From assembly GCA_051362555.1 (NCBI GenBank), contig CM120643.1:26416848-26480847 (forward strand): 64,000 bases of DNA, given 5' to 3'. The notes under the pieces were generated by a model. It did not search any database and was not told where the DNA came from. It was given only the letters and a program-made list of their open reading frames with translations. This DNA comes from Lingula anatina (taxonomy: Eukaryota; Animalia; Brachiopoda). Each line of letters opens with the position of its first letter. The stretch's first letter is position 1. A program made the position numbers and the translations under genes. Of this stretch, positions 1-53,934 are shown piece after piece.

Positions 1-140
1 GAAAAGTGGTTTCATGGGAAGCTTGAGGGTGGGCGACGTAGAGCGGAGGAGCTATTGAACGAGTACGCAGTCCTCGGCGACGGCACATTCCTAGTTCGAG
101 AAAGCGACACATTTGTCGGTGATTTTTCCCTCTCCTTTTG
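1..140 (+). CDS. PLCG1: PLC-gamma nSH2 N-half exon, variant A (5' end outside window)
   Basis: [47 protein letters not shown]; donor TG|GTAAGT at 140/141, phase 2. Confidence 0.95.
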
Positions 141-3100
141 GTAAGTCCCAGCGCCCTCGTTGTCTCCCCTTTCTTCCTAGCATGGCATGGAGTTTGACAC
201 TGTGTATTAATGTTACCCTTAGGTTAGGGAATTGCATTTTTCCGAAGAGTGGTACCATGACTATATTCGAGGAAACGGGTCACGCCAGACCGCTGAGAGC
301 CTCTTGATTCAGTGGGGACCTGCTAAAGGCGACGGAACTTTCTTGGTCCGCCATAGCAAGGAGTTTGTGGGTAGTTTTACTCTGTCGTTTTGGTATGTAT
401 AGGCGTTTGATTGCATGGTGAATTTGATGAAGTGAGTTATTTAGAAAGTTAGATGACACTTTATTGCTTGCACCATTTGGTGAGTCCGGATTTAGAGTGG
501 AATGTGTCAGTCACTGTGTGCTGCACTCTTTTTAAAGACCACTTAATATAGCTGTCTTGTATGCCGTAGTTTAATATATTGACTGAAAACTTGTTTTGTA
601 GTCCATGTATTACATTTTGTTTTGTTTTTGTTTTTAATTTTTGAAGTGCTGTGTCCACTTCACACACTGATGTATTGTTTGTTTCATGAAACACCATGTG
701 ACAAAAGAGCACAATTTAATTGTTTACTTACATATTGATATTGGTTTTTGTTTAAAGTAAAAGACTCTAATCTGCTTATTGCTTCTTGTTAGATATAATC
801 TAAGTAAGTTGCTCATGTGTACTGTGTGTGATCTTATATGAAGTAACAGTCTGAATGTAAGAATTATAACCTACAATAATCACTCATGTTTCTGAAGTCG
901 CCTATTTTAAGTTGTAAATTATAAAAAGAAATGTAGTTGCAAAAAGTTTTTGGCTCACCTGTCAGGAATAACTAACAAAAATTAATTAACCTTAAATTAT
1001 CGGCCTTGTTCAAGCTTATATTAGTGAGTTATTTTTATAATCTAGGGCTTTTGTAATCAAACAGCTGTCATCTTATGATTTATGCTTTCATAAATGAAGA
1101 ATTATGGCAAATAAAAATTATCTCTGTAACACTGTTCACTTCTAAGATTTATACTTTGTTAAGAATCTATACCTGTTAACATCAACTGATAGCTGAGCTT
1201 TAGCTTACTCCACTTAATATTATTGCTATTACCTATTTTATCAATAAATTACCTACTTACATTCTTTGCTGTGTATTTGAGGTATTTCTTGTAATTTATC
1301 TGCTTGTCTTGTATACATTAGTCTTTTTCAATATTTCCTCGAAAAAACTATGGCAGTGTTTCTCTCATTTCTCTTCATCTGATTAACACAAGATGATCAG
1401 TAAAAAGTTCACTAATAATTTCTTCCTCAGGCGTCAGGGGAAAGTGAACCACTGTCGTATCAAGTCCCGTCAAGAGCGCGGCGAGATCCGCTACTACTTG
1501 ATAGACAACGTGCTGTTTGAAAGCTTGTACAGTCTGGTCACATTCTACCGTAATAACCCCCTGCGAAGTCAGGACTTTGAAATGATCCTGGGGGACCCGG
1601 TTCCTCAGCCCCAGAGTCACAAAGGACAGAAGTAAGTTTGCTGTGTAGTATCATAGTTATTTTAATGGTGTTATTGTAATGAGGTAAATGAACCTTTCAG
1701 AGCTAGATTTTCTTGGATTAAAGAGCATTTATTAAAAATTGATTGAATTTTTTAAAAGTCAGATTAATTGTTACTTTTATAAGTTATGCCTGCTTAAGTT
1801 TAAAAATGCGTATTTTGAAAATGATTTTGATAATTGCAATTATGGTTACGTTCACGGGTAGTCATCGGAAGATGGAAAAGAAGATTTACCTGACTAATGA
1901 TGCCATGAAACTTCATAATGTGTATACGTTCTATTTTTCAGGCAGCACCATGAAGGCATTCTTTAAATTTTTTCTGTAGCATATTCTATACACCCTGTAT
2001 ATCAGAGTTTACTGAGGACTTCTATTATCAATAGACCATTGCCATCTCCAGTGACAAGAAATAAGTCACTGGAAATGGCAGATGTATGCTGATAACAGAG
2101 GTTTTACCATACTAGGATGATGTAAATCAAAGACCTTGACATCTTTTTTAAACTCGGAGAACTTTATTTGGGTTTGAACACCTTGAGGACCCTATTTGAA
2201 TTTGGCACCATGAGCCTTCCATTTATATTTTGCAGCTTGAGGGAACCATTTAAATTGGGTACCATGAGAACACTGTTTTTTTTTTTTTTTTGCATCAATG
2301 CATCATAATAAGTTTGTCTATGTTTTAGATGGTATCATGAAGGAATGGACCGCGCCATTGCAGAAGACATGTTAGCACGCATTCCTTTCGACGGAGCTTT
2401 TCTTCTCCGCCACAGTGAATTTGATTCCTCTTCTTACGCCATTTCCTTCAGGTGAAGACAGCCCCTGCACCGTGCAATGGTGCATGTGAATGTGCATTTG
2501 CCGGCATCGTAGAACATTTGCATGACCCAGTTGTCAAGAATTGACAGTTACTTTTGTTATTATTGATACACATACAGTGCATGGTGCCGTGATGATGCAT
2601 TTTTTTTTACAATTTGAATCATTTTAGTACACTGATGGTTGCTGATTTTTGGGAAAACAAAACAAAAACACAGGGGGGGGGGTCTGCAATGAATGAATGA
2701 ATTTCAAATGTGTTATTTTGGATAATTCAAAAACCTGTCCTCTTTTCAGTGTTTAGTACAACTAGATGTTAACTTGAAGCTGACCATATCCTTTCATGTG
2801 CTCATTAAAGCATCTAAGATGTTTCATGTAAGAAATATGTTTTCAAGGATTATAAAAAAAATCAGCTTTCCATAAAACTATCATGGAAATGGCCTGCTAT
2901 GAGTTGACCTAGTACTTATGTTCATTTGGCATGATGTAGGTTGACCAACGTTTGTTTTTGAGTGATGCAAAGCAGTAGAAGATGGATTTCTGTGTGCGGT
3001 GTGCGTGTGTGCATGCGTGCAAAGATGCATGCAATGTAGGAGCACCAATATACTGGAGTTTGTCTCTTTAAAAGAAGAAAAACAAGTCACATCCATCCAT

Positions 3101-6100
3101 TCTCCAAAGTGAAGGGAGCGAGATCATGTCATTTTGTGATTTGTCTTCTATTATTTTGCATGTAGTACTAACCTTTGTTGTTTCTCAGATGGTACCATGA
3201 GGCTCTGTCGCGTGAAAAAGCTGAGGACATGCTTAGTCGTATACGTTACAATGGTGCATTCCTCGTGCGCAAAAGAAATGTCGCAGGCAATGACACCGAG
3301 GCATCCCAATTTGCGATTTCATTTCGGTAAGTGGGATAAACATCCCAGATAGGTATTCCCATTATATATATATATATATATATACTAACATATATGTAGT
3401 TGTTGATGTGCAATCATTAATGTGATATTTGTAGATGGTATCATGAGAATTTAACGCGAGAACAAGCTGAAGACATGTTATGCAGAATTCCATACAACGG
3501 AGCTTATTTGGTCCGGAAGCGAGTAGAAGCATCTGACAAAGATGAGTTTCAGTATGCCATCTCGTTCAGGTAAACGATGAGAAGTTAAGTGCCATCACTC
3601 CGCAGCTTCATATCTCGCCAGCGGCCGGTTTCACAAAAAATCTTTGGACCAGAATTGGTCTCTTTGAGCCCAAATTTTTCTACCTTGCTTTGACTTTATG
3701 TAAAGCAAGTGAAATATTGTATCTTTTGTATATAAAGATGGATTATTTAAACCATAAGAGGCTTTATTTTTGAGAAATATACTACAGATATATTTTGAAC
3801 TGGCGAAGACCAACATTTTCAGCCTGAAACCAGCCCGTGGCCTAGACGCTCATTGGATTTATTATGCTGGTGTTGATTATGTTCATTTTGCTGCTGTTGT
3901 CATGCCTCGCCAGTGTGAAATAGATTGTTTCATCCAATTATTTAGCAAAAAAAAAATTACATGTTTTCGATGAATTTTTCTTCATCTTGTGCCTTTTTTT
4001 GCATTGATGTGAGACATTAAATTTCTGCTTTTTGCTTGAGTAATTTAAGAACTGCTTGTTAAAAATCTAATGAATGCAATCATTATGGAGTATTTCTCAT
4101 TAAAAAAAAACATCTCTGATTCTGTATGTGTGCCTTGTAGTATTCCAATTTTTATGAATGTTATTTTTTGGAGATAAAATAACACCTGAAATAGCTCCAC
4201 AGCCTTGGTTGCATATGTTATCTATGTAATACACCAAGCTAAGCTGACACTTACTGCATGAACGCTATAAGCTTTTTATTTGTGAACATAGAAGCTAGAT
4301 TGTTATGAGACACTGAGTAGAGATTCCCCCTGCAAGTTTGTTGTGTTGCTCATAAGCCAATTTCTCTTTGTAATGATTTTTAAATGAAATGATTCCTGTT
4401 TTTTGTACAGTTGAAAGATTAAGCATTGTGGTATTTCATTGCAATTATTGTGGAAAAATTACTGTTTGAAATGACATTTGAACACATGATTTTATTTTTG
4501 AATGACGTATCTTTGTGTTAAGTAATGGTTACCAAAATGATGTTTTTGAATAAATTGAAAATTATTAAAATCTGAAAACAATTAACAAAATAAAATAAAA
4601 TGTAAAAATGAATTAACTTGTACATAAAGAGTATAACATGCATTTCAGTCTATTTTCATTACTATTCAACTAAATGTTAATGGCTTATTTGCTCTTATAT
4701 TTGCACAGAGCTGAGGGAAAAATCAAGCATTGTCGTATCAAGTTGGAAGGTCGTCTTTTCACCATCGGCAACGCCCAGTTTGAGAGCCTTTTGGAATTGG
4801 TGCAGTATTACGAAAAGAACCCTCTCTATCGCAAGATGAGGTTAAAGTACGCTGTCAATGCTGAGCTAGTCTCACAGATAGGAATGGTAGGAAGACATGA
4901 GATTATCATTGTTATTATAGTATGACCAGTTTAAAGAGCCTTACCACCTGGAGTCATAAAGTTCAGTTTTATACAGTTTATATATGACAAAAAATAATAA
5001 AACTTTATAAGCAAGTTTTGTTGTATTGACTTTAGCCTGTGATGGAATAATATTGAAGAAAAAAGCATTTTATATTTTAATGTTATACTTAAATGCTTAA
5101 TATTATTCACTTGAATGATATGACATTCATGCTTCACTTTTTAATATTTTCTTACAGCATTGGCAATATGTGTCTGGCTTTTCATGCAGTCACCTTGGCT
5201 TTTTTTCTGTATTTTCAGATTGCCACTTTCCTTAAGTTATGAGGATAACAGGTGTGCTTGATTTAGTTTCAGGTTTTATCTTGATTTTAGCACTGTTCGG
5301 AACATGAAGACTAGTGGTGAAAATTTTCTTAAGAAATAACAAAAGAAAAGCTGCTCAGGGGCTTCTTAGGTCATCATCAAGGTTTACACTGTTTTGACAG
5401 CCAGTTTTGATGTGAAATCACCTACATACATTTAGAACATTGTAGTCATTTCTTTCTTTCTGGAAAACCTACGAGACCCTCTAAATCTGCCCTTGTTTTG
5501 ATTGCAAGAACATCTGCCGGGGTCCAATGAAATTTCAAACACTGTTCCTCTGTGTAAGCCATTTTTTAATAATTAGCTAAGCTTCTCTTGACAGGAGCCA
5601 GATGCCAATGCCATCTATGGTTCTGCAGATATCTATATGAATCCTAATGACTATATGTCTAAGGTAATAAGCCCTAGGTTTCCATAGCAACTGCTGCATG
5701 GCCCACCACCTTGGCTTATTTTTTGCTGACAGATTTTTTATTTTGGATTTTTTTCTCTAGTCTTAGATATCCAGGGTTGCTGTTCTGATCTTGCCTCTTT
5801 CTCTCTCATTTCTTTTGTTCAAGAAACACTGGCTTACAGCTTTAAAGATTTACAGAGTTCAGATATCTGTAACAAAATTAAACTGGCTCGGCCAAACAAA
5901 ACGTATACGGACACTTTTTAAACTGATGTAAAGAGAGAGAGGGGCAAGATGAACATTCCTTATCAAGCTCATGGGAGAAAAGAACAACATTTAACAAAGC
6001 AGAATTCTGAATTTTGACTGACAAGAGTTTTATTTTAAGTCCAAATTAAACTGCGATTTCCTGCTTTGTTAACATGTTTTATCTCCTTGCATAGTGAATG

Positions 6101-8201
6101 GTTTGATTACAGGGCAAGAGGCATTTTTCTTTTTCTTTGATTTTGAAATTAGCAGATTTATAGAAAAGAGCAATAAATTTGTGTTTGTTTTGATTGCCCC
6201 CCCCCCCCCCCCCCCCCCCCCATCAAATCCTATCAGTGCATGCCACAAAGTTCGTACATTTAAGCTTTTCCTTTACCAAGCAATGCCCTGGTCCCTCCCC
6301 CCCCTCCCCTCTCTGGAGGCAACACCCAAAACAACACACTTTCAGGTGAAATTTTTATTACCCCTTGGTTACAGTGGCTTTCACAGCAGAGAACACCATT
6401 CCTGAGTAATCCTCTTGATTTGCATGGCGCAAAATTACATATTGGCAATTGTAGCCCTCTTGTGATTTTTCACAGTGCATTTTTTTCCTGCATGACATTT
6501 TTTCCTTTCATTTTCCCCCCGTCCTTAGGACCCGCAAATGGAGTCCATTTACGAAGGTAACTCGTATGCTGATCCCAACGAGTTGGAGTTTATCACAAAT
6601 GTGAGTTGGTTTTGGTGCTTTTATCTCCCGAGTTTTTGTTAACGGAGAATAGGGGTGCTGTTTTCAGCTTGTATCTTTGCTTGGTTTTCCAATTTAAGAT
6701 ACACTAGACGATGTTTTTGTTATTCTTTTGCTTGATTTTGCTCTTGGGCTGATTTTAGCTGTAAATCTCAAAGTGAAAATGTGACATAAAAATGATTTTG
6801 AAGAGACTAAGGTATTTTGGTATTACATAAAGAAAGATAAGTTGTACATAAATATAAATCAAGAAATGCATACATAACATACATAGAAATGCATATCTAG
6901 TTTGAATATCAAATATTATTTATTAACAGTATCATTGGTTGAACCTAAATCTACATTATTATTCCACTGTGTTCAAGGTCAAAGTGAAGGCCCTGTACGA
7001 CTATCACGCACAGCGAGCAGATGAGCTGTCCTTCTGCAAGCATGCCATTGTCAGCAATGTCCATAAGCAAGATGGTGGATGGTAAGACTTTTGTAGATAT
7101 ATTGTTCTTTTTAAGCATTGATTTGTCATCACATTACCTGTGATTTGAAATTTTTATGGAAGAGAAACTTTGCTAAAATTACTTTTGAGTTGTATTCATC
7201 TATACACTCTAAAAATTTGTCATCAAAATGAAACAGTGCATGTCATGTACCAATACGGCCATGAAGCAAAATTTCCCCATATACATATAGAATGTTGAAC
7301 TGTTAGATTCCTGTTAAGTACAAACTTAATTTACAGCACAAAAAATGAGTAATAAATTGATTAAGATTATAATTATTCAAGACTGCCGGCCACTGAGTAC
7401 AGTGTGTCTTCTATTTGACATTCCTTCAAATTATCTCACCACCAGGTGGCGTGGTGACTATGGTGGAAATAAACAAATGTGGTTCCCATCAAATTATGTG
7501 GAAGAGTTGGAGATATCCGAGGATTCTGATTCGACGCCCCTGGGCTCACTGCAGAAGGGCATGCTGGAAGTGACCTGCTGCATTGTGGGTAAGTGCATGA
7601 CGTACAGATGAATTAAGTTAAGGGTTTGGATATATCTGGATATTTGGGTATTGTATTTATGTTCCCAAGACCCCCCACTCCCCCTCAAAGACACATGCAT
7701 CTTCAACACTTGGATTTTCCAGATTTTTTCTAAATGGTCCACTTTCATCTCTGTTTATATCGTGTTGTAGAAAAATCAGAAGTAAATTAATAGGGAAAGT
7801 GTTTGGATTTGATAGAACCTAAGGCATGCTGTATTGTCCTTGGTTTGTAAAATGTTAGAGAAAAAGAAACAGGTGAATTCTTTGACTGGTTAGCTATCCT
7901 GCAGGTTAAAGATATCACTTGACCACCTGTGCATGTTTCACAAAATGAGTTTTGGTTAAAAACAGAAATAATATTATTTAAACAATGAAGCAATACCTAA
8001 TACTGTTGACTTGCTCTTTTCAGATAAAATAGAAGGTGGCAAGGGCTCAAAGCAGTATGTATTCCGTGTGATCTCCAACGGCACGCCTCTAGAGATTGCC
8101 GCCAGCAGCGAGGAGGACATGTTGGACTGGATGAAGGCCATCAAGGATTGTGCAAATATGGCGGAACTTAGGGTATGGTGGCCCAAAAAGTGCCAGTTGG
8201 A

Positions 8202-8251
<50 letters not shown>

Positions 8252-11200
8252 ATTAGCCTACACTTTCATTTTAATATGCTAGGAACTTTAAGATATTTCA
8301 CTTGAAGTTACACTTCATCTTTGTAATTAATAGTGTAAATTTATTTATTTATTTCAGAGTAAAGAGCATGCAGACCAAGAGAGAGCTTTAAGGATTGCCA
8401 AAGAATTCTCTGACATAATAGTTTACTGTCGCTCAGTGCCTTTTAATGAAAGCAGTAAGTTATACAAGGAGACAGAAATGTACTCTAAGTTGTCAAATCT
8501 ACTTCCTAAGTCTTAGTTCTTTTGAGGAGGACAAAATACCATTATAGTCTAGTAATTATCAATTGACAGACATTTTGGATTAAAATATTTGTTTATATAT
8601 TACTGTATATATATATAACCTCAAACTTTAAAAACCTTTAATACAATGGAAAATTACTGACATCCACACAGAGAGAGAGAGAGAGATAGAGAATCCAGGT
8701 GTTGGAGAGATAGACCCTTACTAACACACCTAGAGATGTTGACCTATGGATACCTAATAATACAATGCCACCATTTTGTGATATACATTACCCATCATGT
8801 TCTCTCTCTCCCACAGATGTCCCAGGGAACTACTATGATATACATTACCCATCATGTTCTCTCTCTCTCCCACTCAGATATCCCTGGGAACTACTATGAT
8901 ATACATTACCCATCATGTTCTCTCTCTCTCTCCCACAGATATCCCAGGGAACTACTATGATATACATTACCCATCATGTTCTCTCTCTCTCCCACTCAGA
9001 TATCCCTGGGAACTACTATGATATACATTACCCATCATGTTCTCTCTCTCCCACTCAGATATCCCAGGGAACTACTATGATATACATTACCCATCATGTT
9101 CTCTCTCTCTCAGATATCCCAGGGAACTACTATGATATACATTACCCATCATGTTCTCTCTCTCCCACTCAGATATCCCTGGGAACTTTTGTGATATACA
9201 TTACCCATCATGTTCTCTCTCACTCAGATATCCCAGGGAACTACTATGATATACATTACCCATCATGTTCTCTCTCTCTCAGATATCCAAGGGAACTACT
9301 ATGATATACATTACCCATCATGTTCTCTCTCTCTCAGATATCCCAGGGAACTACTATGATATACATTACCCATCATGTTCTCTCTTACTCAGATATCCCA
9401 GGGAACTACTATGATATACATTACCCATCATGTTCTCTCTCTCCCACAGATATCCAAGGGAACTACTATGATATACATTACCCATCATGTTCTCTCTCTC
9501 CCACAGATATCCAAGGGAACTACTATGATATACATTACCCATCATGTTCTCTCTCTCCCACAGATATCCCAGGGAACTACTATGAAATGTCCAGCTTCTC
9601 AGAGACCAAAGTGGAAAAATATGTGAACAAACTGAAGGGCCAGACCTTCATGAAGTATAACCAAAACCAGCTGAGCAGGATTTACCCCAAAGGTCAAAGA
9701 ATCGACTCTTCCAATTATGACCCCACCATGCTGTGGATATGTGGGTCACAGATGTGTGCCCTAAACTACCAGACACCAGGTGAGTTCATTGCTTGGGGAG
9801 GGGGGAAGAGTTGGTGTCAGAGAGAAGGGAGCAGGATATTGGGCTCCGTAAGGGATACTGTTCTCAGAGTGGGGAAGGGGTGCCAAGGAGGGAGTTACTG
9901 TTCATGTGATCATAATTTTTAGTGGAAGTACATAATTATCAGTCACCAAATGGGTTAGATTGTTGGTCTCCAAGTTGGGGATTCAGCAGAGTTGAACATT
10001 GGGGATGGTTGGGGATTGCTTTTAATTTTCAAAATATTTTGAGGCAGCCAGTCCATTGCCATCAAACGTGGCAGACATTACATGTTTTTTTCTTTAACTT
10101 GTAAACTTCAGTTGATGCACACTATGCTTTTACGTATTTCTAATCTCATTTATCCCCTTGTAGATCGTTCTATGCAGCTGAATGAGGGGAAATTCAAACA
10201 GAATGGAAAGTAAGTACAACAATCTTTTATTTATTTATTTATTTTTCATTTTTTTCCCTGTATTAGCAATAATCATGAAGTAGACATAGGTGTTACAAAA
10301 TGGTTGAGGAATGTGGCATTGGGAATGAAGCTCTGTTGTCATTAAGTGTATATAAGTTAGAGGTGTAGATATCTATAAATATTAAATATATTTATTGGCC
10401 TGTTCATCGGTGTAATTGTTTGTAACAGGATATTTAAGTTTATTAAAATATTGAAATATATTCAAATATTAAAAATTAATGGCTTAACAGGTTTTTCCAC
10501 ATGCTAAAATATCATAATGTAACAACAAAGGTGAAAGGACTGTTTATCGGGTTGCTTTGTGATGATGCACAACAGTTCAGTTATATTTATGAGATGTATT
10601 TTTTTTTTTTTTAATTTTTCTAGTCTAGTGGTTATACTCCAAGTTTTCTCTTCTTTTTTAAGGTGTGGTTACATTCTCCAGCCAGAAATCATGCGACACA
10701 TCGACTACGACCCGTTTGACAAACGGACACTTGTCAATGTAGATCCCCTCACAGTAACTCTAACAGTATGTTAACGTTTACAACTGATATTTTAAAATAT
10801 CAAACTTTGTTACATTGAGTAAATTGGTATTTATGACCAATTCTTTTTTAGGCTATTTACAGTAACTGTTGACTTCATCAAATCATAGAAGTTATGTTCA
10901 CTGTTGTAAGATAAAAGGATGGTCTTGAAAGGATTATGATAGTGGGTTTGTTTCAGTTTTTAAAGTTTTGGGTAACATTGGAGTTTAAAACATAAGAGAA
11001 AAAGAGATCACTTTACTTGAGATTACTGGTCTTAGTGAACCCTGTATCTGTCTTGAAGCACTGTAATAATAATTTTGTAAAGTAACTCTCTGTGGAAACC
11101 AGCTTTAAGATACATATTTTTAATATTTTGTGATTTATTTACTAATTTATGTACTAAATTTTCAGATCATAGGAGCCCGTCACTTAGTCAAATCTGGCCG

Positions 11201-14200
11201 CGGGATTGCCAGCCCATTTGTAGAAGTGGAAATATGTGGAGCGGAATTTGACAATGGAAACAAATACAAAACTAGAACAAAGGGTAAGAAAATAAGTTGT
11301 ATGAAATGAAAGTTCAGTGTACCTACAACTGCAGGTACGCTGAACTTTCATTTCATACAACTTATGTAAAAATACTCTGAATTAAAGGTGTCATTTTAAA
11401 AACCAAAATTTTAAATGATTCATCTGTCAATTGATACTATGATTTTGGCAAATCTTGTTTGTTCAGCACTTTGATCATGTCATACCAAGGCCCATAGAGT
11501 GAAGTATGACTTGTCCTCTAAATAAACTACATTATGTAGACATGTATGTTTGTACTAGTATATATGTAACTAATGAGTGGACAGTGGTTTCAAGTCAATG
11601 TAGAATGACTTGTATGAGTTTTACATAGAATTTTGGTCCAGGCCCAGTGAATCACTTGTCTTGTTGATTATATTAAGAACAACTGGTCATGAAGAAATGC
11701 TATGTTAGATATAACATTGACCATGTATCTTCTCTGTAGTGGACAATGGTTTTAACCCAGTGTGGAATGACCAGTGTGAGTTTGACATCATCAACCCCGA
11801 GGTGGCCATGATAAGGTTTGTGGTCCAGGATGAAGACATGTTTGGGGACCCTAACTTCCTCGGTCAGGCTTCTTTCCCAGTCAAGAGCATCAGACCAGGT
11901 AAGTTTCTGATCAGAAGATTGTCTGGGCTGATATGAATGGATTATATGAATAGCATTATTTTGCAATAGCCAAGTTGCCAAAAAATTGGGGTAAAATTTT
12001 ATTTTTCAATTTTGTGTAAAAAAAATGTTGTAATAAATTGTTCTAGTTTTTAGAAAAATATTTTAAATTTTCTTAAGCACATGTATATTTAAGGATTTTA
12101 TTGGGATTTCAAATACAAGTTTGAGCATAGATCTTGTAATTCTGATTATGAAAGATACTTCCAAAACATGCTTGACCGTCCAAATTGGTAATTCTGATAT
12201 CACAGATATATTATAAAATAACAGTCCTTTTAGTTCACTGCAGGAAAAGGTCCTTTAGTATAGTTATGTAAAGGCCTTTCTATTCTAAGAGGATATCTTT
12301 TGTTATGCCCTTTACTTGATCCATGCCAAAACTTTATAAATAAGTATGTTGTCATTTGTATCAACATTTGAATTATAATATGTGATATAGAATTCGGTTA
12401 CCGGTCAGTCCCACTGACCAATGGCTACAGTGAACCCCTAGAACTGTATTAAGTATAATATTTATATTACGTTACCAGGTTACCGGTCAGTCCCACTGAC
12501 CAATGGCTACAGTGAACCTCTAGAACTGTATTAAGTACAATACATATATTATGTTACCAGGTTACCGGTCAGTCCCACTGACCAATGGCTACAGTGAACC
12601 CCTAGAACTGTATTAAGTATAATATTTATATTATGTTACCAGGTTACCGGTCAGTCCCACTGACCAATGGCTACAGTGAACCCCTAGAACTGTATTAAGT
12701 ATAATGTTTATATTATGTTACCAGGTTACCGGTCAGTCTCACTGACCAATGGCTACAGTGAACCCCTAGAACTGTATTAAGTATAATATTTATATTATGT
12801 TACCAGGTTACCGGTCAGTCCCACTGACCAATGGCTACAGTGAACCCCTAGAACTGTATTAAGTATAATATTTATATTATGTTACCAGGTTACCGGTCAG
12901 TCCCACTGACCAATGGCTACAGTGAACCCCTAGAACTGTATTAAGTATAATATTTATATTATGTTACCAGGTTACCGGTCAGTCTCACTGACCAATGGCT
13001 ACAGTGAACCCCTAGAACTGTATTAAGTATAATATTTATATTATGTTACCAGGTTACCGGTCAGTCCCACTGACCAATGGCTACAGTGAACCCCTAGAAC
13101 TGTATTAAGTATAATGTTTATATTATGTTACCAGGTTACCGGTCAGTCTCACTGACCAATGGCTACAGTGAACCCCTAGAACTGTATTAAGTATAATATT
13201 TATATTATGTTACCAGGTTACCGGTCAGTCCCACTGACCAATGGCTACAGTGAACCTCTAGAGCTGGCTGCCCTTCTGGTCCGGGTGGACATGAGGAACC
13301 CAACTGTATGTATTGATTTTATAATATTCATCATATCTACTTTTAAACATGAGAGTTCTAATGCTATGAAGTCCAGTTCAATTTAAGATAAACACTTGGT
13401 TTAGTAAACACTAATTTCAGTAAATAGTAGTCACAGCTGTAAAAAGAACAAGTCTCTGGAATGTATAATATTAGGTTCAGCTGAACCTAGCAAGTCTTCA
13501 CTGCAGACACAATTAAAATTTTTATGTCATCCAAAAAAACATATTCTTTCTTTTCCTTTCCAGCAAAGTACAGATAGTGACATCTATGCCTGTATTCAAG
13601 ACCTACGAGATCGTTCCCAGGAGCTTCACTACCAGATTGCGGAGTCAGAGCGAGTTGGAAACACAAGAGAAGCAGAGGAAATAAAGAACAAACTGAAACA
13701 AACCGAGGAAGAGCTGATTCAGAGAACAGATGAGAGGCATCGGATCAACAAACAAAGGTTTTAGTTCTTACTATATATTTATTTATTTATTTTAATGTGT
13801 TTATTTTCATTTTAAATGATTCTGGATGAATTATGGCACTAACAGGTAGATGTTGAACAAGGTTGCAGTGGATAAAATACCTGGATAAAGGGAATTACTG
13901 ATTATTTATTTGTTTTGTGTCAAACAAAACTGAACAGCAAAAAATTGTATATTTTAATGTACGAACACTTATTAAAATGTGCGCACTAAATTTGTTGTGC
14001 GGTGGTAAAAGCTACTTCAGAAATGTAAAAATGTAGCCTGAATAGAAAAAGTCCAGTCCCTAAATTATGAAGTTGATGTGGTGTCCCATGTATCTTCTTT
14101 ATACAAAAGATTGTATTTTGAATATTATATTCAATGATTCTGTTATAAATTACACAAAGTACTCATTATTTTGTGCTTGGAACATGAAATGAATGCATGT

Positions 14201-17783: not shown

Positions 17784-17786
17784 GCA

Positions 17787-18593
17787 ATGGATTCAGATGG
17801 AATTAAACAGCTGGCAGATGCTATCAGACAACAAACCCTGGACATATATCAAGGTTCTACAGTGCAAACAATATCAGCTGTTTCATTTAAAGCACCACCA
17901 TTTTGGAACACAAACGCATCTGCTTGGTTTTTACGTCTGGAATCATCCTTTGCAACACACCAGCCAGCCATTACAAATGACTTGACTAAATTTCATCATG
18001 TAGTGCAACTCCTGGACTCATCAACCTCCAGACGTGTTCAGTCAGTAATTGAGAGACCACCTCAGACAGGAAAGTATGAAGCACTAAAGCATGCACTGTT
18101 AGAAGCCTATGAAGCCACACAATACCAAAAGGATACAGCATTACTTAATATAAATGGTCTAGGAGACAAACGACCTACGGAACTATTGATGCATATGCGC
18201 TCTTTAAATGCAGATCCAAGCACACTTTTTCGCACATTATTCATCAATCAGATGCCAACAGAAGTGAGACGGATTCTTGCACAATCACTAGAAGTTGATC
18301 TTGACACCTTAGCTAAAATGGCTGATCGGATTTTAGAAGTAGACCCTCTTACCCCTTCTTCAATTTCTATGACTACCACAGTGCCTGAAGAAAATCTTAC
18401 AACAATAACTGATACAGAAATAAACGCCATGAAATCTCAGAACCAACGCACTGGCACTATCAAGTTCAAATTATGTAAATATCATCCATGGTTCGGACAT
18501 AAAGCCAGGAAATGTGAACAAATCATCGATGGCTGTCCTTGTCCAATGTCTACACGAAGACAACAGGGAAACGACAAAGCCAGCAGAAATTAG
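17787..18593 (+). CDS. gag: Retrotransposon Gag
   Basis: 268-aa ORF with KAPPFW..WFLRLESSF and a C-terminal CxxH...C...C motif (CKYHPWFGHKARKC..CPC). Confidence 0.93.
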   Translation: MDSDGIKQLADAIRQQTLDIYQGSTVQTISAVSFKAPPFWNTNASAWFLRLESSFATHQPAITNDLTKFHHVVQLLDSSTSRRVQSVIERPPQTGKYEALKHALLEAYEATQYQKDTALLNINGLGDKRPTELLMHMRSLNADPSTLFRTLFINQMPTEVRRILAQSLEVDLDTLAKMADRILEVDPLTPSSISMTTTVPEENLTTITDTEINAMKSQNQRTGTIKFKLCKYHPWFGHKARKCEQIIDGCPCPMSTRRQQGNDKASRN

Positions 18594-21500
18594 TGAGCAC
18601 TGCTGGTCTATCTGATGCTCCACAAATTTCTACGATCAATATGGGGACAATCACCGTTTCTGATATTGTCACTGGGCGTACTTTCCTTGTAGATACAGGA
18701 GCAGAAGAATCCGTTTTTCCTGCTAACCGATTTGACCGACAACGAACCAGTGGCCCAAGTCTTATTGCAGCAAATGAAACAAAAATACCTACTTACGGAA
18801 AAAGGAAGATGATTTTAAAACTAGGGAAAGGAACAAAATTCACTCAAGAATTCTGGATAGCTGACGTCACACAACCCATTCTAGGTGCTGACTTTTTCAC
18901 TACTCATCGTTTGGCCATTGACCTTTCCAACAGAAAGTTAATCTCATTGGATGGAAAAACGGTCATTCATGCTCACCTCACTAGATCTCAGCAACAAGGG
19001 ATTCACAAAGTTCACACAAGATACGAAGCAGTATTAGAAAACTACCCGGAGCTCTTAGTGTCATCCTTTAAGGAAAATAAACACGGAGTAGAACATCACA
19101 TCCCAACCGTTGGATCTCCAGTTAAAGCCAGAGTACGTCGTCTTGACCAAGAAAAGCTCACTGCAGCAAAAATGGAATTCAAGGAAATGGAGAATCTGGG
19201 GATAGTGCGTCGTTCCTCTTCACCATGGTCATCTCCTCTACATATAGTGAAGAAAAACAATGGTGGCTGGAGACCTTGTGGAGATTATCGTCGACTTAAT
19301 GACATTACCATAGACGATCGTTATCCTCTACCTCATATACAAGATCTCAATTCATCACTCAATGGAAAGACAATATTCTCTAAGATCGATTTGATTCGGG
19401 GATATCACCAGATACCAGTTGCCAAACATGATATTCCTAAGACTGCAGTCATCACACCTTTTGGACTTTATGAGTTCCTTAAAATGCCTTTTGGGCTTAA
19501 AAACGCAGCACAGGCGTTCCAAAGATTAATGGATGGCATTCTACAGGAACTTGACTGTTGTTTTGTGTATCTTGATGACATTTTAATAGCAAGTTCCACA
19601 CCTGAACAACATGAGGAGGATCTTAAAGCAGTTTTCAACCTGTTAAGGACAAATGGACTTGTTATTAACAAGAAAAAGTGTGTATTTGGACAATCTGACG
19701 TTGAATTTCTAGGTCATTCAGTGTCTGCAGCTGGAGTTCAACCACTTGCAGAAAAAGTGAAAGCAGTAGCAGATTTTCCACCACCCAAGGATAAAAAAGG
19801 CCTTCAAGGATTTCTGGGAATGCTGAATTTCTACCATCGTTTTCTTCCTGGAATCGCACATCGAATAATACCTCTTACTGAAGCTACCAAGGGCAGAGCC
19901 AAGACTTTGCAGTGGACCCCTGAATGCCAATTAGCATTTCAGGATGCTAAAATGGCTCTTGCTTCTGCAACTATGCTTCATCACCCTGAACCAAAGGCAG
20001 CAACCAAGATATCAGTGGACGCTTCTGACGCCGCAATAGGAGCAGAACTTTCTCAGTTTCAATCAGGGATGTGGAAACCTATTGCTTTCTTTTCTAGAAA
20101 ACTCACACCTACCCAGAAACGATACTCCACTTTTGACCGTGAGCTTTTGGCAATTTACAGTACCATCCGCCATTTCAGATATTTTTTGGAGGGAAGACCA
20201 TTCACCATTTTCACTGATCATAAACCTCTCACTTTTGCGTTCAAGAGTACATCTGACAGATCACCACGTCAAGAGAGACAATTATCATTTATTGCTGAAT
20301 TTACAACTGATATACGACATATCAGTGGAACTGATAACATTGTCCCAGACACTCTGTCCAGAGCCCCAGTGGAAACTGATGAGCCACTTATTGCCTCCAC
20401 AGCTACAATGCCGACAATTGACCTTACACAGTTAGCAGCATCACAAAAGACTGACACAAAGATGGTTGAACTGTGCGCCAATCCAGGATCTTTGAAGTTA
20501 AAGGAAGTCATCTTTGGTGAGGTTAAACTTCTCTGTGATACAACTACCAGTCGACCTCGGCCAGTAGTTCCACCTTCAATGACGAGGATCATTTTTGAGG
20601 CAATACACAATCTTTGTCATCCTGGAACAAAACCAACAATCCGTGCCATTTCAAGTCGTTATGTCTGGCCTGCACTCAAAAAAGACATTCGTAATTGGGT
20701 AAAATCTTGTCATGCCTGTCAAACAAGTAAAATTGGACGTCACACTAGAGCACCGTTAACCACCTTTGATCCACCAGATAGACGATTTGGTGATATTCAT
20801 GTTGATTTGGTTGGACCTCTTCCTCCAGAAAATAACAAATATCTTCTGACAATTGTTGACAGGTTTACAAGGTGGCCAGAAGCTGTACCTTTACCGAATG
20901 CAGAAGCAGTTACTTGTGCCAAAGCTCTTTTATGCTCATGGATATCAAGGTTTGGTGTTCCAGACTCCATCACATCAGATCAAGGTAGACAATTTACAAG
21001 TGAACTTTGGCGTGAGCTTAACAAGGTGCTTGGCATTCAACCTAACACAACAACAGCCTATCATCCACAATCCAATGGCATGGTTGAAAGATTTCATCGC
21101 AGATTGAAAGAAGCCCTCAAAACACGTTTAGACAATGCAAGATGGATGGACCAGTTACCAATTGTATTACTTGGTATCCGGTCAACATGGAAAGAGGACA
21201 TTGATGCATCACCAGCACTTCTTACCTATGGTACAAATTTAAGAGTACCTGGTGACTTTATTCCGAACACAACTGATGACAAATTTTTTCCTAACAATGA
21301 ATTTGTGCAAGAACTTCAACAAACAATGCAGAAATTGGCTCCTGCTCCTCCATCTAGACATGGGCAGATTGGTACATATGTACCGTTTGACTTGCAACAA
21401 GCTGAACATGTATATGTAAGACATGATGCTCATCGAGGTACATTGATTAGACCATATGATGGTCCTTACCTTGTCATTTCACGTTCCGACAAATATTTTG

Positions 21501-21682
21501 ATATTTTAAGGAATGGACAAACAATTCGTGTCTCAGTTGACAGACTTAAACCAGCTTATAACAATCCGGTTTCAGTGCACAATCAGACAGTGAATCCACA
21601 AACAAAACCAGAGACATGTCTTTCACCTTCTTTAATTAAAACACGTTCCGGTAGAATAGTTAAAAAGCCGGAAAGATTTTAA
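18566..21682 (+). CDS. pol: Retrotransposon Pol (protease, RT, RNase H, integrase), probably made by -1 frameshift
   Basis: LVDTGA protease, MPFGLKNA and YLDD RT, VDAS..DRELLA..TDHKPL RNase H, HNLCH..CHAC zinc finger, HVDLVGP/SDQG/GMVERF integrase, GPY motif; overlaps gag in the -1 frame. Confidence 0.96.
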   Translation, partial: GKRQSQQKLVSTAGLSDAPQISTINMGTITVSDIVTGRTFLVDTGAEESVFPANRFDRQRTSGPSLIAANETKIPTYGKRKMILKLGKGTKFTQEFWIADVTQPILGADFFTTHRLAIDLSNRKLISLDGKTVIHAHLTRSQQQGIHKVHTRYEAVLENYPELLVSSFKENKHGVEHHIPTVGSPVKARVRRLDQEKLTAAKMEFKEMENLGIVRRSSSPWSSPLHIVKKNNGGWRPCGDYRRLNDITIDDRYPLPHIQDLNSSLNGKTIFSKIDLIRGYHQIPVAKHDIPKTAVITPFGLYEFLKMPFGLKNAAQAFQRLMDGILQELDCCFVYLDDILIASSTPEQHEEDLKAVFNLLRTNGLVINKKKCVFGQSDVEFLGHSVSAAGVQPLAEKVKAVADFPPPKDKKGLQGFLGMLNFYHRFLPGIAHRIIPLTEATKGRAKTLQWTPECQLAFQDAKMALASATMLHHPEPKAATKISVDASDAAIGAELSQFQSGMWKPIAFFSRKLTPTQKRYSTFDRELLAIYSTIRHFRYFLEGRPFTIFTDHKPLTFAFKSTSDRSPRQERQLSFIAEFTTDIRHISGTDNIVPDTLSRAPVETDEPLIASTATMPTIDLTQLAASQKTDTKMVELCANPGSLKLKEVIFGEVKLLCDTTTSRPRPVVPPSMTRIIFEAIHNLCHPGTKPTIRAISSRYVWPALKKDIRNWVKSCHACQTSKIGRHTRAPLTTFDPPDRRFGDIHVDLVGPLPPENNKYLLTIVDRFTRWPEAVPLPNAEAVTCAKALLCSWISRFGVPDSITSDQGRQFTSELWRELNKVLGIQPNTTTAYHPQSNGMVERFHRRLKEALKTRLDNARWMDQLPIVLLGIRSTWKEDIDASPALLTYGTNLRVPGDFIPNTTDDKFFPNNEFVQELQQTMQKLAPAPPSRHGQIGTYVPFDLQQAEHVYVRHDAHRGTLIRPYDGPYLVISRSDKYFDILRNGQTIRVSVDRLKPAYNNPVSVHNQTVNPQTKPETCLSPSLIKTRSGRIVKKPERF

Positions 21683-35540: not shown

Positions 35541-38485
35541 ATGAGCCAGTGTAAGCCCGTAGAGAAGGCTGGGTATCTGGATGTCAAACAGCTGGCCAAG
35601 GGAAGAGGGATTAGAATTAAGGTAAGGCTGATGTACTTCCATAATTTTTTGACCACCTCATTTGAAAATATAGAGGCATGTGAGGATATTGGTTCCAAAA
35701 AAATGCACTAGTACGTTGAAAATCCATAATCGCTTTGGATTCCACTTTCAAGGCAACGTTTGCTAATATTTGATTTTTTTACCATAGTTAAGCCATTTTA
35801 AAATTGAGGACCAATGATCTCAAGCTGGTAAACAAAACCTGACCGGCAGCACCAGGATGACCCCGTTGTTTAACCTAGGACCCCTGCTTCATGTTTCATT
35901 GGGTTCTAGGTTTTGAACGAGGATGGTCTCTTCTGGAAACGTCTTACTTGAGCAAATATTCTTAAAACTTATAATAAGATATGATATAATGTGATATATT
36001 TAATAGCCGAATAAATAAATAAATAAAAATAAATAAATAAAAAATTTGTATCTACATTTCAGGCATGGAAAAGAAAATGGCTGGTCCTCCATCAGATGAG
36101 CGATCTGTCGGCCGGAAAATTCCTGGCCCGACTCGAGATTTTTCAAGACGAGGAGGGCAGCCGCAAAAGGCAGGCAGACAAGTTGACGATGTACTTAGAA
36201 AACGTGTGTAGCATTCAGAGGATTAAGTCCAAGAGCCACTCGTACGCCTTTGAGATACAGGAGGACGAGAGCGTGTTGTGTTTGGCCGGGGAGAGCGAGA
36301 CCGAGGCCCAGGGATGGATAAGTGCCCTGAGGAAGATCTTCTGGCCGGTGACAATAAATCCCTACGCTGTGCTGGCGATACCAGGTAAAACAAATCAGAT
36401 ATATTCCATTTTTTCTTGTTTTATTCTGATTTTTTCCAAATAACGTTACAACAATTTTTAAGACTTCCATCAATAGCTGATACTGAAAGAAATCTTAAAA
36501 ATGTTTAAGATTGTTTGATTGTTTTTGGAAAACAATTTAGAAAAGACAACACGCACTTGCATGTGTGTTGAAAAGATACGCACCTATAAAAAGGAGTAAG
36601 AAAATACAAGAAAAAGTTGCACAGAATAATCGATACAGCATAACAAGTGGCCATATGAGTCAAGGGGGATTAAATAGGCAGACTGCAAAATAAAAAAAAA
36701 AAAATAGGATAACGAAAATTACAAGTCACTGAACACACAAAGACTCCTATTGATGACACTGCGGCAACACAGCGTGTGGTAAATCACACAAAATGTTTTT
36801 TCCAATAATTTTTGGGTACATTTATAATCGACCATGTTGTTGTGCATAACGCAAGCCATATATGCTCACTGTTACATATAGGAATCGCTGTCATCATTAA
36901 CATAATCAACATAATTTGAATAACAAGGAGTAATTTAGGATGCAAAAATATATATTTTTAAAACCCCAGTAGCGATCAAGGTTTTGTAAACAACACAGGC
37001 CCGGTTCTTATCTCGGCATCTTAAGTACCGTAATAACTACATAAACGCGTGAAGAGTACACGACTATCTGTGATCTAGATCTTAATGCGGAGTAGAAACG
37101 AAAACAACTCAAACGTCACTCCATCTTCATCCAAGAAGAAAATATTATCCATTTATGGGAAGAAAATATAAACAATTAAAGCAAGTTAAGAAAACATGAA
37201 AGCAAAGAGCAGGAAAGCTGCAACAGATTTTTGTCCTGATTTTGCAGGAGCCAAAAGATAAATGTAAATGAAATCAATATAATAAATAATTTATGACTCA
37301 ATTGATCAGTAAATTAATTAGATCTATAACAACTTACTCATCACTGTGTGATTAATATATTTATTAATATACTAATGGGAAAAACTTTTTAAAAATGATA
37401 AACAAACAACAACGAATTGCAATTCGATAAATGTTGCCAAAAGGAATGATACTTCCTACGTTCAATTTTTGTACTGTGCGAACCGTATCTGCTATCAAGT
37501 GCACCGTCATGGTGTGACTGGCTACCACTACACAGTACTGCCACACCATATTTTTTAACAATCTGAACTTTGGTTAAGTAACTTGTTTTTCAAAAGTTAT
37601 CTTTTCACGATTCGGAACAAGTCTGATTGGAGATAATGTCATATGACGTCATTTCTCCCTTTTTCCTTGGTGGCTCGTACCTTTGTTGTGGTTCGTGATT
37701 CAAAGTGTAAAACACAAGGTAGCCGTGATTTCATTGATCTTTTTGTGGATAGTGCAGACGAGCATGTAGAAATGACCTTTTTTTGTTGCAAATCACGGCA
37801 AGCCTGTAGGTAATAATTACGTTGTGGCAACTTGGTGTAGTTTTTATGACGTCACCCTGCGTGCGACCATGTGTCAGGTTTTTGGTTAAATCTTAAAGGT
37901 TGGTTATTGTCCTGAATTTCACTTTTCATGAAATGGTTTGGATTTAATTTTGTATCCCGGTGCTTCTTTAAATCTCCCCCTTTCTTTTATTTTGTCTCCC
38001 TCCCCCTGCCCTCATTTCATTCCTCCTTACCCCCTCTTTTTTTTATTCCACCCTTTTCTCAATCCCTCCCTATATTCGTCTTTACCCCCCCCCCCTCTTT
38101 CACAAAACGCACGAGGACCGACACACATTTTTACGAAGCTCCATGCTTTCTTCCCAGGTGTTCAAACTTCAACAAAAAACTTGGGTACAAAACAATTCGT
38201 GTCAAGTCGAGACATCGAAATTCGGGTACTCTGGTTAAGAATTAACCCAACTTTAAGGGGCTCGAGATAACGGCGACAGGCACGGTGAGAACGCCGCAGC
38301 ACAGGGGGAGGGAGAGGGGGGGATACTATCACCAATCAGGCAATCTCCACCTTGCTCCGGTTAGATAAAGTGATCATGCGTGCCTTACCTTTTATGTATG
38401 AAGGTCGTAAATCAGAAACAATAAGGACGCTCGGACCTACTTATGAGCTTGTGTTGATAACTTGTCTGAGTTTATTTATTTTGCT

Positions 38486-38516
<31 letters not shown>

Positions 38517-38845
38517 GAGTTGCGAGAGAGAGAAAGAGAGAGGCGGGGATGAAAATGATGAAGACCCTAGAGCAAAAATACCCCAAACCAGTCCATACCA
38601 CAACGTTCTATAAATATCTGGAAAACAAGCCCTGATAATGGGCGGGGAGGCGGAACAGATCACAAGACTATTGCTCCTTAAAATCCGCACCAAAACCAGC
38701 GATCAGGTGTAATGAATCCCGCTGATCATCTGGTCACATGTTCTACGGAACACAATGTGTGAACATGTAATACGGGGTGGGCAGCTATCAGAGCACGACA
38801 TGGATTCAGCCGCATGCCTCGCTGTTATCACTCCAGTGCATTTGG

Positions 38846-38886
<41 letters not shown>

Positions 38887-41800: not shown

Positions 41801-42885
41801 TACCAACCTCGGTGAATGAGGATGAGGAAGAAGAAAATGTATATGAGGAATTAGACAGGTATAAGAAAGACATCTACAAATATCTTGGAATTACTGACGC
41901 ACCGTCTTCCGGGCCGCTCACGCCGCCGCCCCCAGCTCTTCCAGAACGGACCAAGTCCACCCCAAATAGCCCAGACCCTGGGTCAGTAAGCAAGGGTACC
42001 CGGAGAAAGAAACGTTGGAATCCAGCAAAGAAACTCGTTAAAAGATTAAGCAAAACTGACGATAAATTGACCGACGAGTCGACATCGTCGGATGAAGAGG
42101 GATTCAGAACTTTGGTCAATCAGTCGGACGAGCGTGCGTTCCCTGTTCAGTACGGGCGCTCTTTAAGTCACATGACAGACAACACGTTGTATGCAGCCGT
42201 GTCGAAGACTGCGCCCGTGCACGTGCGCTCGCGGTCAAATCCCGTGGCTCTGGAAACCATACCATCAGAAAACGCAACGCCGTCCGAGTCATCAAATGTA
42301 ACGCCGTGTGCGTCATCCGCAAAACTTTCATCTAGTGCGAACTCGAGTGGTGATTTGTTGATTGACTTTAGTGAACCTGGAGAGAGTGTTCCGACCAGTT
42401 CAGCGTCAGTGGCTCCCCCTTTTAGTGGACTTGACTGGGGCTGGAGCAGCAGTATCCCACAATTCCAAACGCCCTCTCCAGCCTTGGATCCGCGCGATCC
42501 GTTTGACAGTAGTTGGGTGTCGGAGAATAATGACAGTTTTTCTTCTTTCGATGCCAACTGGGCAGACTTTTCAAACGCTGGGTTCAAAGCGGCTGGGAAA
42601 ACTTCAGGTGCTACGACGCAATGGCTAAGCGCACCTAACGCATTCAACTCAACTAGTGTGCTGACTGAAAGTGTTTCTGCCATAACGTCGCAACTAACAC
42701 ACTCAACAAACTGGGTTGCATTTCCAGAAATCGAAAGTGAAGCCAAAGCAACAGGGTCGAAACTTGCCGCAGAAATGATCGGCGAGGACCATTACATGGA
42801 TATGTCGAAGAAGAATGCTATTTATGTAGACATGAAGTCGGTACCATCGTCAGAGTTGCTGAAATTTGACGAACAACTGTACTAA
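35541..42885 (+). CDS. DOK/IRS-family docking protein (PH + IRS-type PTB + long Tyr-motif tail)
   Basis: Exons 35541-35621 (VEKAGYLDVK), 36063-36384 (AWKRKWLVL..AFEI..EAQGWISAL, PH), 40279-40498 (FEVSLI..TWKLACLKRF..VIQAGE, PTB), 40755-42885 (NSATGIGEFHLFT, then Ser/Pro-rich tail; alternative in-frame acceptor at 40736/40737). Phases are consistent. Confidence 0.85.
38847..38885. repeat. Poly-G run (~39 nt)
   Basis: Direct reading. Confidence 0.9.
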
Positions 42886-53803: not shown

Positions 53804-53849
<46 letters not shown>

Positions 53850-53895
53850 CAACCTGTGCTAAGTACTTTATGACAGAAGCCTTTAAGTTTATGGA

Positions 53896-53934
<39 letters not shown>

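Follow-up and report, generated by a model that had tools for sequence, protein, structure and literature searches.

Three clusters of tandem exons supply alternative SH2 halves and tyrosine linkers in a PLC-gamma gene of Lingula anatina

Introduction

The PLC-gamma gene of the brachiopod Lingula anatina, whose 3' part occupies positions 1-13764 on the plus strand of the 64,000-nucleotide stretch analyzed here (contig CM120643.1, positions 26,416,848 to 26,480,847; hereafter the window), raises the question of how a single signalling enzyme makes use of several versions of its own phosphotyrosine-binding parts. The gene carries two exons for the N-terminal half of the nSH2 domain (n1, n2), three for the N-terminal half of the cSH2 domain (c1, c2, c3) and two for the linker between cSH2 and SH3 (l1, l2). 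Mutually exclusive splicing of these copies had been proposed in a preliminary description of the window, and RNA junctions bear out part of that proposal: all seven exons are real, expressed and used as alternatives, and strict exclusivity is not proven at the present depth. We consider it probable that each transcript would receive one of two nSH2 halves, one of three cSH2 halves and one of two tyrosine linkers (2x3x2), that this choice likely adjusts how phosphotyrosine is bound and at what threshold the enzyme is activated, and that a Rbfox-type splicing factor likely helps to choose the exons.

Exon clusters of the PLC-gamma gene

The window's own database model (P0001, 1274 amino acids) has a Pfam domain set of PH, EF, X-box, split PH with an nSH2-cSH2-SH3 insert, Y-box and C2, which places it within PLC-gamma, and it is homologous over its full length to the structure chains of PLC-gamma1 and PLC-gamma2 (E = 0). 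The model is built from n1, c1 and l1. The relevant exons and the introns between copies are as follows (lengths in nucleotides, nt).

<1-140, plus strand: n1, alternative nSH2 N-half exon of a widely conserved class; its 5' end lies before base 1
141-222, plus strand: n1-n2 intron, 82 nt, with two GCATG; closest candidate branch-point A 57 nt from the donor
223-392, plus strand: n2, alternative nSH2 N-half exon, 170 nt, phase 0 to 2; AG/GT ends and junction reads
1431-1631, plus strand: nC, constant nSH2 C-half and inter-SH2 linker; splice ends, junction reads and Pfam
2329-2451, plus strand: c1, cSH2 N-half exon of the short-loop class, 123 nt, phase 2 to 2; AG/GT ends and exit junction reads
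2452-3188, plus strand: c1-c2 intron with seven GCATG (six of them TGCATG), of which three lie no more than 130 nt from the c1 donor and another about 31 nt upstream of c2
3189-3326, plus strand: c2, cSH2 N-half exon of the long-loop R-K-R class, 138 nt, phase 2 to 2
3327-3434, plus strand: c2-c3 intron, 108 nt, with a 22-nt TA run; candidate branch-point A 62 nt from the donor
3435-3569, plus strand: c3, cSH2 N-half exon of the long-loop R-K-R class, 135 nt, phase 2 to 2, 108 nt past c2
4709-4886, plus strand: cC, constant cSH2 C-half, expected site of the EF and BG loops
5595-5663, plus strand: l1, cSH2-SH3 linker exon, 69 nt, phase 0 to 0, with two tyrosines 6 apart
5664-6528, plus strand: l1-l2 intron with four TGCATG, one about 33 nt after l1 and three before l2
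6529-6600, plus strand: l2, cSH2-SH3 linker exon, 72 nt, phase 0 to 0, with two tyrosines 5 apart
6978-7081, plus strand: first SH3 exon, constant

A profile search of all six frames recovered exactly two n, three c and two l exons, at the positions given for them in the preliminary description, and no further n, c or l copy anywhere in the 64-kb window. Best scores in the minus-strand controls were far lower, except for one n1 fragment in a locus outside the window, and n2, c1, c2 and c3 all score above the Pfam SH2 cut-off. The copies had been described as open, strongly diverged and flanked by canonical splice sites, and this holds: amino-acid identity between siblings is 52% for n1/n2, 55% for c1/c2, 60% for c1/c3, 68% for c2/c3 and 26% for l1/l2, and AG/GT ends were checked for every exon but for the acceptor of n1, which falls upstream of base 1. 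With that same proviso for n1, the copies are adjacent, homologous, similar in length and identical in phase, as expected of tandem duplicates. n2 is open in the frame of n1 and has its donor at the identical position, and all six combinations of n1 with a c and an l exon can be read through the first Y-box exon with no stop codon.

The Y and C2 exons, which had been called single-copy, are so as complete exons; their acceptors and 5' ends are tandemly repeated. For the Y-box exon the copied part is the acceptor with the first bases (55 nt x 14.1 at 8779-9585), and likewise for the last C2 exon (82 nt x 10.6 at 12396-13266). The last copy alone is used in the RNA joints listed for either array, and products of splicing to an earlier copy would likely be lost to decay. 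The nC-c1 intron also contains, at 2018-2102, a 38-nt inverted repeat whose arms are 76% complementary around a 9-nt loop and which may be what is left of a small transposon.

RNA evidence for alternative use

RNA joints were taken from seven of nine raw-read runs carrying the same species label, from three studies, with X2 and X6 left out and X7 counted once. Joints with fewer than three reads per run were not listed, three further joints lay outside the listing, and statements about joints refer to those listed. A total of 176 junction reads over 11 joints connects all seven exons to common constant exons, as mutually alternative exons would require. Both nSH2 exons run into nC (n1, 140>1431, 35 reads; n2, 392>1431, 7 reads); nC is joined to c2 (1631>3189, 31 reads) and c3 (1631>3435, 9 reads); and c1 (2451>4709, 6 reads), c2 (3326>4709, 22 reads) and c3 (3569>4709, 7 reads) all exit into cC. 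From cC, reads continue to l1 (4886>5595, 7 reads) or l2 (4886>6529, 31 reads), and from these to the first SH3 exon (5663>6978, 8 reads; 6600>6978, 13 reads). None of n1-n2, c1-c2, c2-c3, l1-l2, nC-cC or cC-SH3 is among the joints.

Entry into n1 lies outside the window, and splicing of n2 to its upstream flank is documented by four loose-end reads of X8, which pass directly from the upstream exon to n2 and skip n1. These reads leave the upstream exon four codons before P0001 reaches the motif that starts n1 in the metagenome locus L004, which indicates that n1 has a longer 5' end or that a 12-nt microexon precedes it.

In these runs n1 is the major form, and c1 and l1 are minor forms. Exit reads from c2 and c3 number 0:5 in X4 against 7:2 in X1 and X7 together (Fisher p 0.021; 0.045 on start-site counts), which hints weakly at regulation. 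Reads of X7-X9 diverge from the window by several percent, which points to a divergent population or a close species. We tested the 33 exonic variants among the 40 listed (32 further variants lay outside the listing): synonymous changes make up 10 of the 13 in alternative exons and all 20 in constant exons, and none was listed for n2 or l1.

Origin of the exon classes

We examined 20 isoform clusters of relatives. In a FastTree phylogeny of 42 full-length proteins, in which brachiopods, phoronids and nemerteans were not represented, P0001 falls with three annelid sequences (local support 0.953) and not among the molluscs sampled; it is most similar to Owenia (63.5% identity), Chaetopterus (63.3%) and Ptychodera (63.0%). 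The preliminary description had called for a comparison with invertebrate gene models, and there the same classes recur: the cSH2 and linker classes in a chiton, the n2 class in Owenia, and more than one linker exon across molluscs. Each of the eight full-length RefSeq isoforms of the chiton Liolophura contains one cSH2 half (five long-loop, three short-loop) and a single linker (six of the l1 class, two of the l2 class). At least two linker exons are found in Haliotis, Octopus, squid and cuttlefish, Biomphalaria, Aplysia, Bradybaena and Mercenaria, the last with three.

The Owenia model has n1 fused to part of an n2-class exon that pairs with n2 of the window (ultrafast bootstrap support, UFBoot, 98), and P0253 holds a second n2-class exon outside the window. 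A word search with n2 gave no match at E <= 0.001 among 20 candidates; a full HMMER search gave 118 matches, all of which were screened for a motif and nine inspected. P0257, P0259 and P0261 have a G-P-x-L-G-D-G stretch in common with n2, without the rest of the n2 signature, and are assigned to no class. Long-loop c exons of the window, Owenia, Paralvinella, the chiton and P0187 cluster together (UFBoot 78), c1 is nearest to mollusc, Chaetopterus and short-loop chiton sequences, and the split between c2 and c3 was found only in this window. Linker classes were defined by tyrosine spacing, as the linker tree was too weakly supported for use: spacing is 6 (l1) or 5 (l2) in annelids and most molluscs, and the first linker has a spacing of 9 in Mercenaria and a single tyrosine in cephalopods. 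Among 19 metagenome loci, four span cC to SH3, of which L004 alone has two linker exons, with AG/GT ends.

Conservation thus extends to distant species, namely the chiton, Owenia, Paralvinella, Chaetopterus, other molluscs and L004. No swaps were seen in isoform clusters, which are gene models and not genomes, of two corals (one cluster with 15 of its 31 members covered), a hemichordate, a brittle star, a sea cucumber, a horseshoe crab, a spider, a mite and a millipede. From this distribution we infer that the n, c and l duplications predate the split between annelids and molluscs, that most lineages retained subsets of them, and that c2 and c3 separated later.

Other rearrangements of this gene family were also observed. 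Two PLC-gamma sequences in separate clades are found in each of the snails Babylonia and Nucella (P0004/P0016 and P0005/P0012), so that a whole-gene duplication is likely in neogastropods. L010 and L016 contain tandem nC-like exons, the second one diverged, possibly a duplication of the C-half in other animals; P0255 (578 amino acids) has two tandem PLC-gamma-like SH2 pairs in series; and in L007 an inverted fragment of the n1 exon end lies within the n1-nC intron (1873-1920, minus strand).

What the alternative exons change

By alignment, the n exons correspond to residues 543-599 and the c exons to residues 668-706 of PLC-gamma1. The FLVR arginines of that protein are R586 and R694 (bioRxiv 10.1101/2024.06.28.601066). 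Both lie within the exchanged spans, and the FLVR arginine is kept in all five SH2 variants (in c1, 13 residues separate it from the exon end). In SH2 nomenclature we take the exchanged exons to run from strand A to strand C, with the EF and BG loops in nC and cC. In SH2 domains the phosphotyrosine is contacted directly where helix A begins and strand B ends, and the EF and BG loops contact flanking residues (PMC9203054); in PLC-gamma the BG and EF loops of cSH2 hold the C2 domain in a clasp but can bind pTyr783 as well, and the loop before helix A of nSH2 rearranges upon FGFR1 binding (PMC7004563).

The loops on either side of helix A are where n2 differs from n1. In the c exons, c1 has R-H-S with a short loop, and c2 and c3 have R-K-R with 4-5 extra residues; the second arginine takes part in phosphate binding. 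The swaps would therefore alter the phosphotyrosine pocket and leave the C2 clasp and the main specificity loops as they are, and since the exchanged halves hold the pocket arginines and the loops around them, with EF and BG constant, affinity and kinetics would be changed more than the motif recognized. The claim that the exons exchanged by splicing are just those responsible for receptor input and for the activation switch is not supported, as the exchanged halves form the pocket and the EF and BG loops are encoded by constant exons. l1 aligns to the loop of PLC-gamma1 that holds Tyr783, and a linker swap would change both the kinase site and the cis-ligand that draws cSH2 off the C2 domain.

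Exclusion and candidate Rbfox motifs

For n1 and n2 exclusion can be enforced by the reading frame, as the 170 nt of n2 are not divisible by 3 and inclusion of both exons is predicted to cause a frameshift and nonsense-mediated decay. The exons c1-c3, l1 and l2 are multiples of 3 and open when placed in series, and l1 and l2 leave the frame open also when skipped, so another exclusion mechanism would be needed there. Steric hindrance is expected where donor and branch point are less than 50 nt apart (PMC5740500). The nearest candidates from a simple motif scan lie at 57 nt (n1-n2) and 62 nt (c2-c3), and this mechanism was rejected; the other introns between copies measure 737 and 865 nt. No convincing repeat set for docking-site and selector pairing of the Dscam type was found in this gene, with no close genomes available for conservation.

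It is in the motif content of these introns that a candidate regulator appears. Sequence flanking alternative exons (1,990 nt) contains 10 TGCATG, against 3 in the 4,769 nt that flank constant exons (p 5.5e-4). The shorter GCATG occurs 13 times in the 1,684 nt of the three introns between first and second copies, as against 6 times in 7,824 nt of 16 other intron stretches, from which two tandem-repeat blocks had been excluded (p 1.6e-6; 0.0016 after Bonferroni correction over 5-mers; reverse-strand control 3 vs 9), and none of 2,000 shuffles reached 13. The flanking introns are thus enriched in (U)GCAUG, as is characteristic of Rbfox clusters. In L004 a TGCATG precedes l2 by 20 nt, and in L013 one follows l1 at a distance of 59 nt. 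In worms, UGCAUG is present in 11 of 29 exclusive-exon clusters, and RBFOX is reported to repress one such exon from upstream and to promote another from downstream (PMC4165533). Under this rule, motifs placed between first and second copies suggest that Rbfox would favor the first copies (n1, c1, l1) and repress the second ones (n2, c2, l2), and since the motif is concentrated at this position in all three clusters, one factor may shift all three together.

Alternative explanations

Several observations weigh against the explanation favored here, beginning with the depth of the RNA data. At this low depth the listing could conceal as many as 8 reads per joint in part of the read data, equivalent to 17-50% of a donor's reads, and the hidden share may reach 30% of the reads from the c2 donor and 50% of those from the l1 donor. 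The nC>c1 joint is absent from those listed in the seven runs, and intronic RNA reads flank c1 at 1660-2370 and 2450-3080 (X7-X9), which may reflect slow splicing or retention. The intron set used for GCATG was picked after the motif had been seen; the 6-mer TGCATG fails Bonferroni correction (0.16), with a poly-C run ranking above it, and it is found downstream of n2 as well. L004 is not enriched overall (4 found, 8 expected) and has no motif after its l1. No second n or c exon is present in the 19 metagenome loci, where n2 is in none of the 12 that span n1 to nC and each of the seven that span nC to cC has one c exon. Linkers are moreover modelled in series in 4 of 13 isoforms of Octopus, 7 of 11 of Biomphalaria/Bulinus, 7 of 11 of Mercenaria/Ruditapes, 2 of 3 of Aplysia, 2 of 10 of squid and 1 of 2 of Bradybaena, and both are skipped in 1 of 10 isoforms of Haliotis and 2 of 13 of Octopus.

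Such in-series and skipped models, common in molluscs, together with the tolerance of the reading frame for either arrangement of l1 and l2, suggest that the linkers could be semi-independent cassettes, included zero, one or two at a time with a varying number of tyrosines, and that exclusivity is limited to the SH2 halves. We consider this rather unlikely, as in Lingula cC joins either l1 (7 reads) or l2 (31 reads), each of which continues to SH3 (8 and 13 reads), with l1-l2 and cC-SH3 missing from the joints, and as one linker is present in 8 of 8 chiton isoforms. That the variants are near-equivalent products of an old exon duplication, retained only for their ability to fold when spliced in, seems less likely again: many lineages make do with a single n and c exon and all three non-synonymous variants listed sit in alternative exons, but class features (loop length, R-K-R vs R-H-S, tyrosine spacing of 5 vs 6, the n2 signature) persist across phyla and exon use varies between runs. 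Local tandem repeats at other exons of the same gene could bring to mind an assembly artefact or dead pseudo-exons, a reading that deserves practically no credence and is refuted by junction reads tying every copy to the same flanks; sibling identity of only 26-68% and the presence of the classes in other phyla speak against it as well.

The number of isoforms is a separate matter. The figure of 12, previously given as a minimum, is instead the maximum under independent clusters, and the motif layout hints at coupling. The three clusters might form a few programmes, for example n1-c1-l1 and n1-c2/c3-l2, in which the cSH2 pocket travels with a matched linker and isoforms number far fewer than 12. 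The placement of motifs between first and second exons in three of three clusters is consistent with this, as is the minor status of both c1 and l1 in these RNA runs, and the comparison of gene models and loci, in which no read pairs or long reads were phased, adds associations of short-loop cSH2 with the 6-spaced linker (P0001, Chaetopterus, three of three short-loop chiton isoforms) and of the long loop with the 5-spaced linker (Owenia, Paralvinella, two of five long-loop chiton isoforms). Nevertheless, three of the five long-loop chiton isoforms have an l1-class linker, gastropod, bivalve and cephalopod models use both linkers with the short loop only, L008 combines a short loop with the l2 class, L004 has a long loop and both linkers, and n1 is major where c1 and l1 are minor; gene models, besides, are mostly chained from short reads. 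Coupling is possible on this evidence, if somewhat unlikely. A stronger version, in which the cSH2 pocket and the tyrosine linker belonging to it would have been exchanged by a single Rbfox switch ever since the annelid-mollusc ancestor, so that neurons or muscle have a matched enzyme whose activation threshold differs from that in other tissues, with descendants keeping different subsets, is offered tentatively as a rather doubtful conjecture.

Other features of the window

Within the PLC-gamma gene, reads of X1 and X3 at 7627-7659 match a 33-nt piece of intron only and then continue into other sequence, probably another transcript that shares a repeat. Overlapping open frames of 269 and 1054 amino acids at 17784-21682, with DUF7041, reverse transcriptase, RNase H and integrase domains, apparently constitute an intact long terminal repeat retrotransposon, which we take from the domain order to be of the Ty3/gypsy type. 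A gene at 36033-42885 on the plus strand, with a PH-domain exon and a 761-amino-acid low-complexity exon containing several tyrosine motifs, presumably encodes a DOK/IRS-type adaptor, and another at 45524-55819 on the minus strand, with proline-rich exons and a WH2 motif at its end, presumably encodes an MTSS/MIM-type actin regulator.

Relation to known systems and significance

We regard FYN as the closest described analogue. The FynB and FynT forms likewise arise from tandemly duplicated exclusive exons with tissue-specific use in an SH2-containing tyrosine-signalling enzyme, and the region concerned includes a regulatory linker after SH2 (PMC9741552). FYN has a single pair, covering the SH2-kinase linker and the kinase N-terminus, whereas the three PLC-gamma clusters exchange one half of both SH2 domains as well as the phosphotyrosine linker to which cSH2 binds in cis. 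Several independent clusters with more than two copies and lineage-specific gain and loss are shared with Dscam and muscle myosin heavy chain (PMC4165533, PMC5740500, PMC3912159), in which, however, receptor immunoglobulin or motor domains are varied; docking-site and selector pairing was not found here. C. elegans egl-15 and unc-32 have RBFOX-controlled exclusive exons with UGCAUG in the flanking introns (PMC4165533). In PLC-gamma, by comparison, putative Rbfox binding follows from motif counts only. FGFR2 IIIb/IIIc is a similar RBFOX case, on which the review we consulted has no passage.

Vertebrate PLCG1 and PLCG2 have the same domain order and full-length homology to the Lingula protein. 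Their nSH2 recruits the enzyme, and cSH2 autoinhibits it until bound to pTyr783 in the cSH2-SH3 loop (PMC7004563, PMC9203054), one model being contested; how pocket and linker set the activation threshold of the vertebrate enzymes is still debated (bioRxiv 10.1101/2024.06.28.601066). Vertebrates have two genes instead of one, and it had been suggested that splicing covers here the roles divided between them. The cSH2 domains of both paralogues have R-K-R and a short loop, unlike the split between c1 and c2/c3, and the analogy therefore fails.

In titles and abstracts we found no alternative SH2 exons in PLC-gamma, most subscription papers being outside this coverage, and the accessible part of PMC7574550 contains nothing relevant to such exons. 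The main texts of two surveys of human exclusive exons (PMC5740500, PMC9741552) contain no occurrence of "PLCG"; their supplements may bear on vertebrates. RefSeq already contains the chiton and mollusc isoforms, listed as X-isoforms without names. The PLC-gamma exon clusters are real, expressed and old, are built from a known device, and are apparently undescribed.

Models with a single isoform miss or garble such exons, as P0001 does by containing the minor c1 and l1 and the Owenia model by fusing n1 with part of n2. With the clusters described here, a core signalling enzyme would join the few genes that have several clusters of exclusive exons, with duplications that would date from before the divergence of annelids and molluscs. 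They constitute a naturally occurring set of half-SH2 and linker exchanges within an otherwise unchanged enzyme, which allows a direct test of the part played by the pocket and the tyrosine linker in setting the activation threshold of PLC-gamma.

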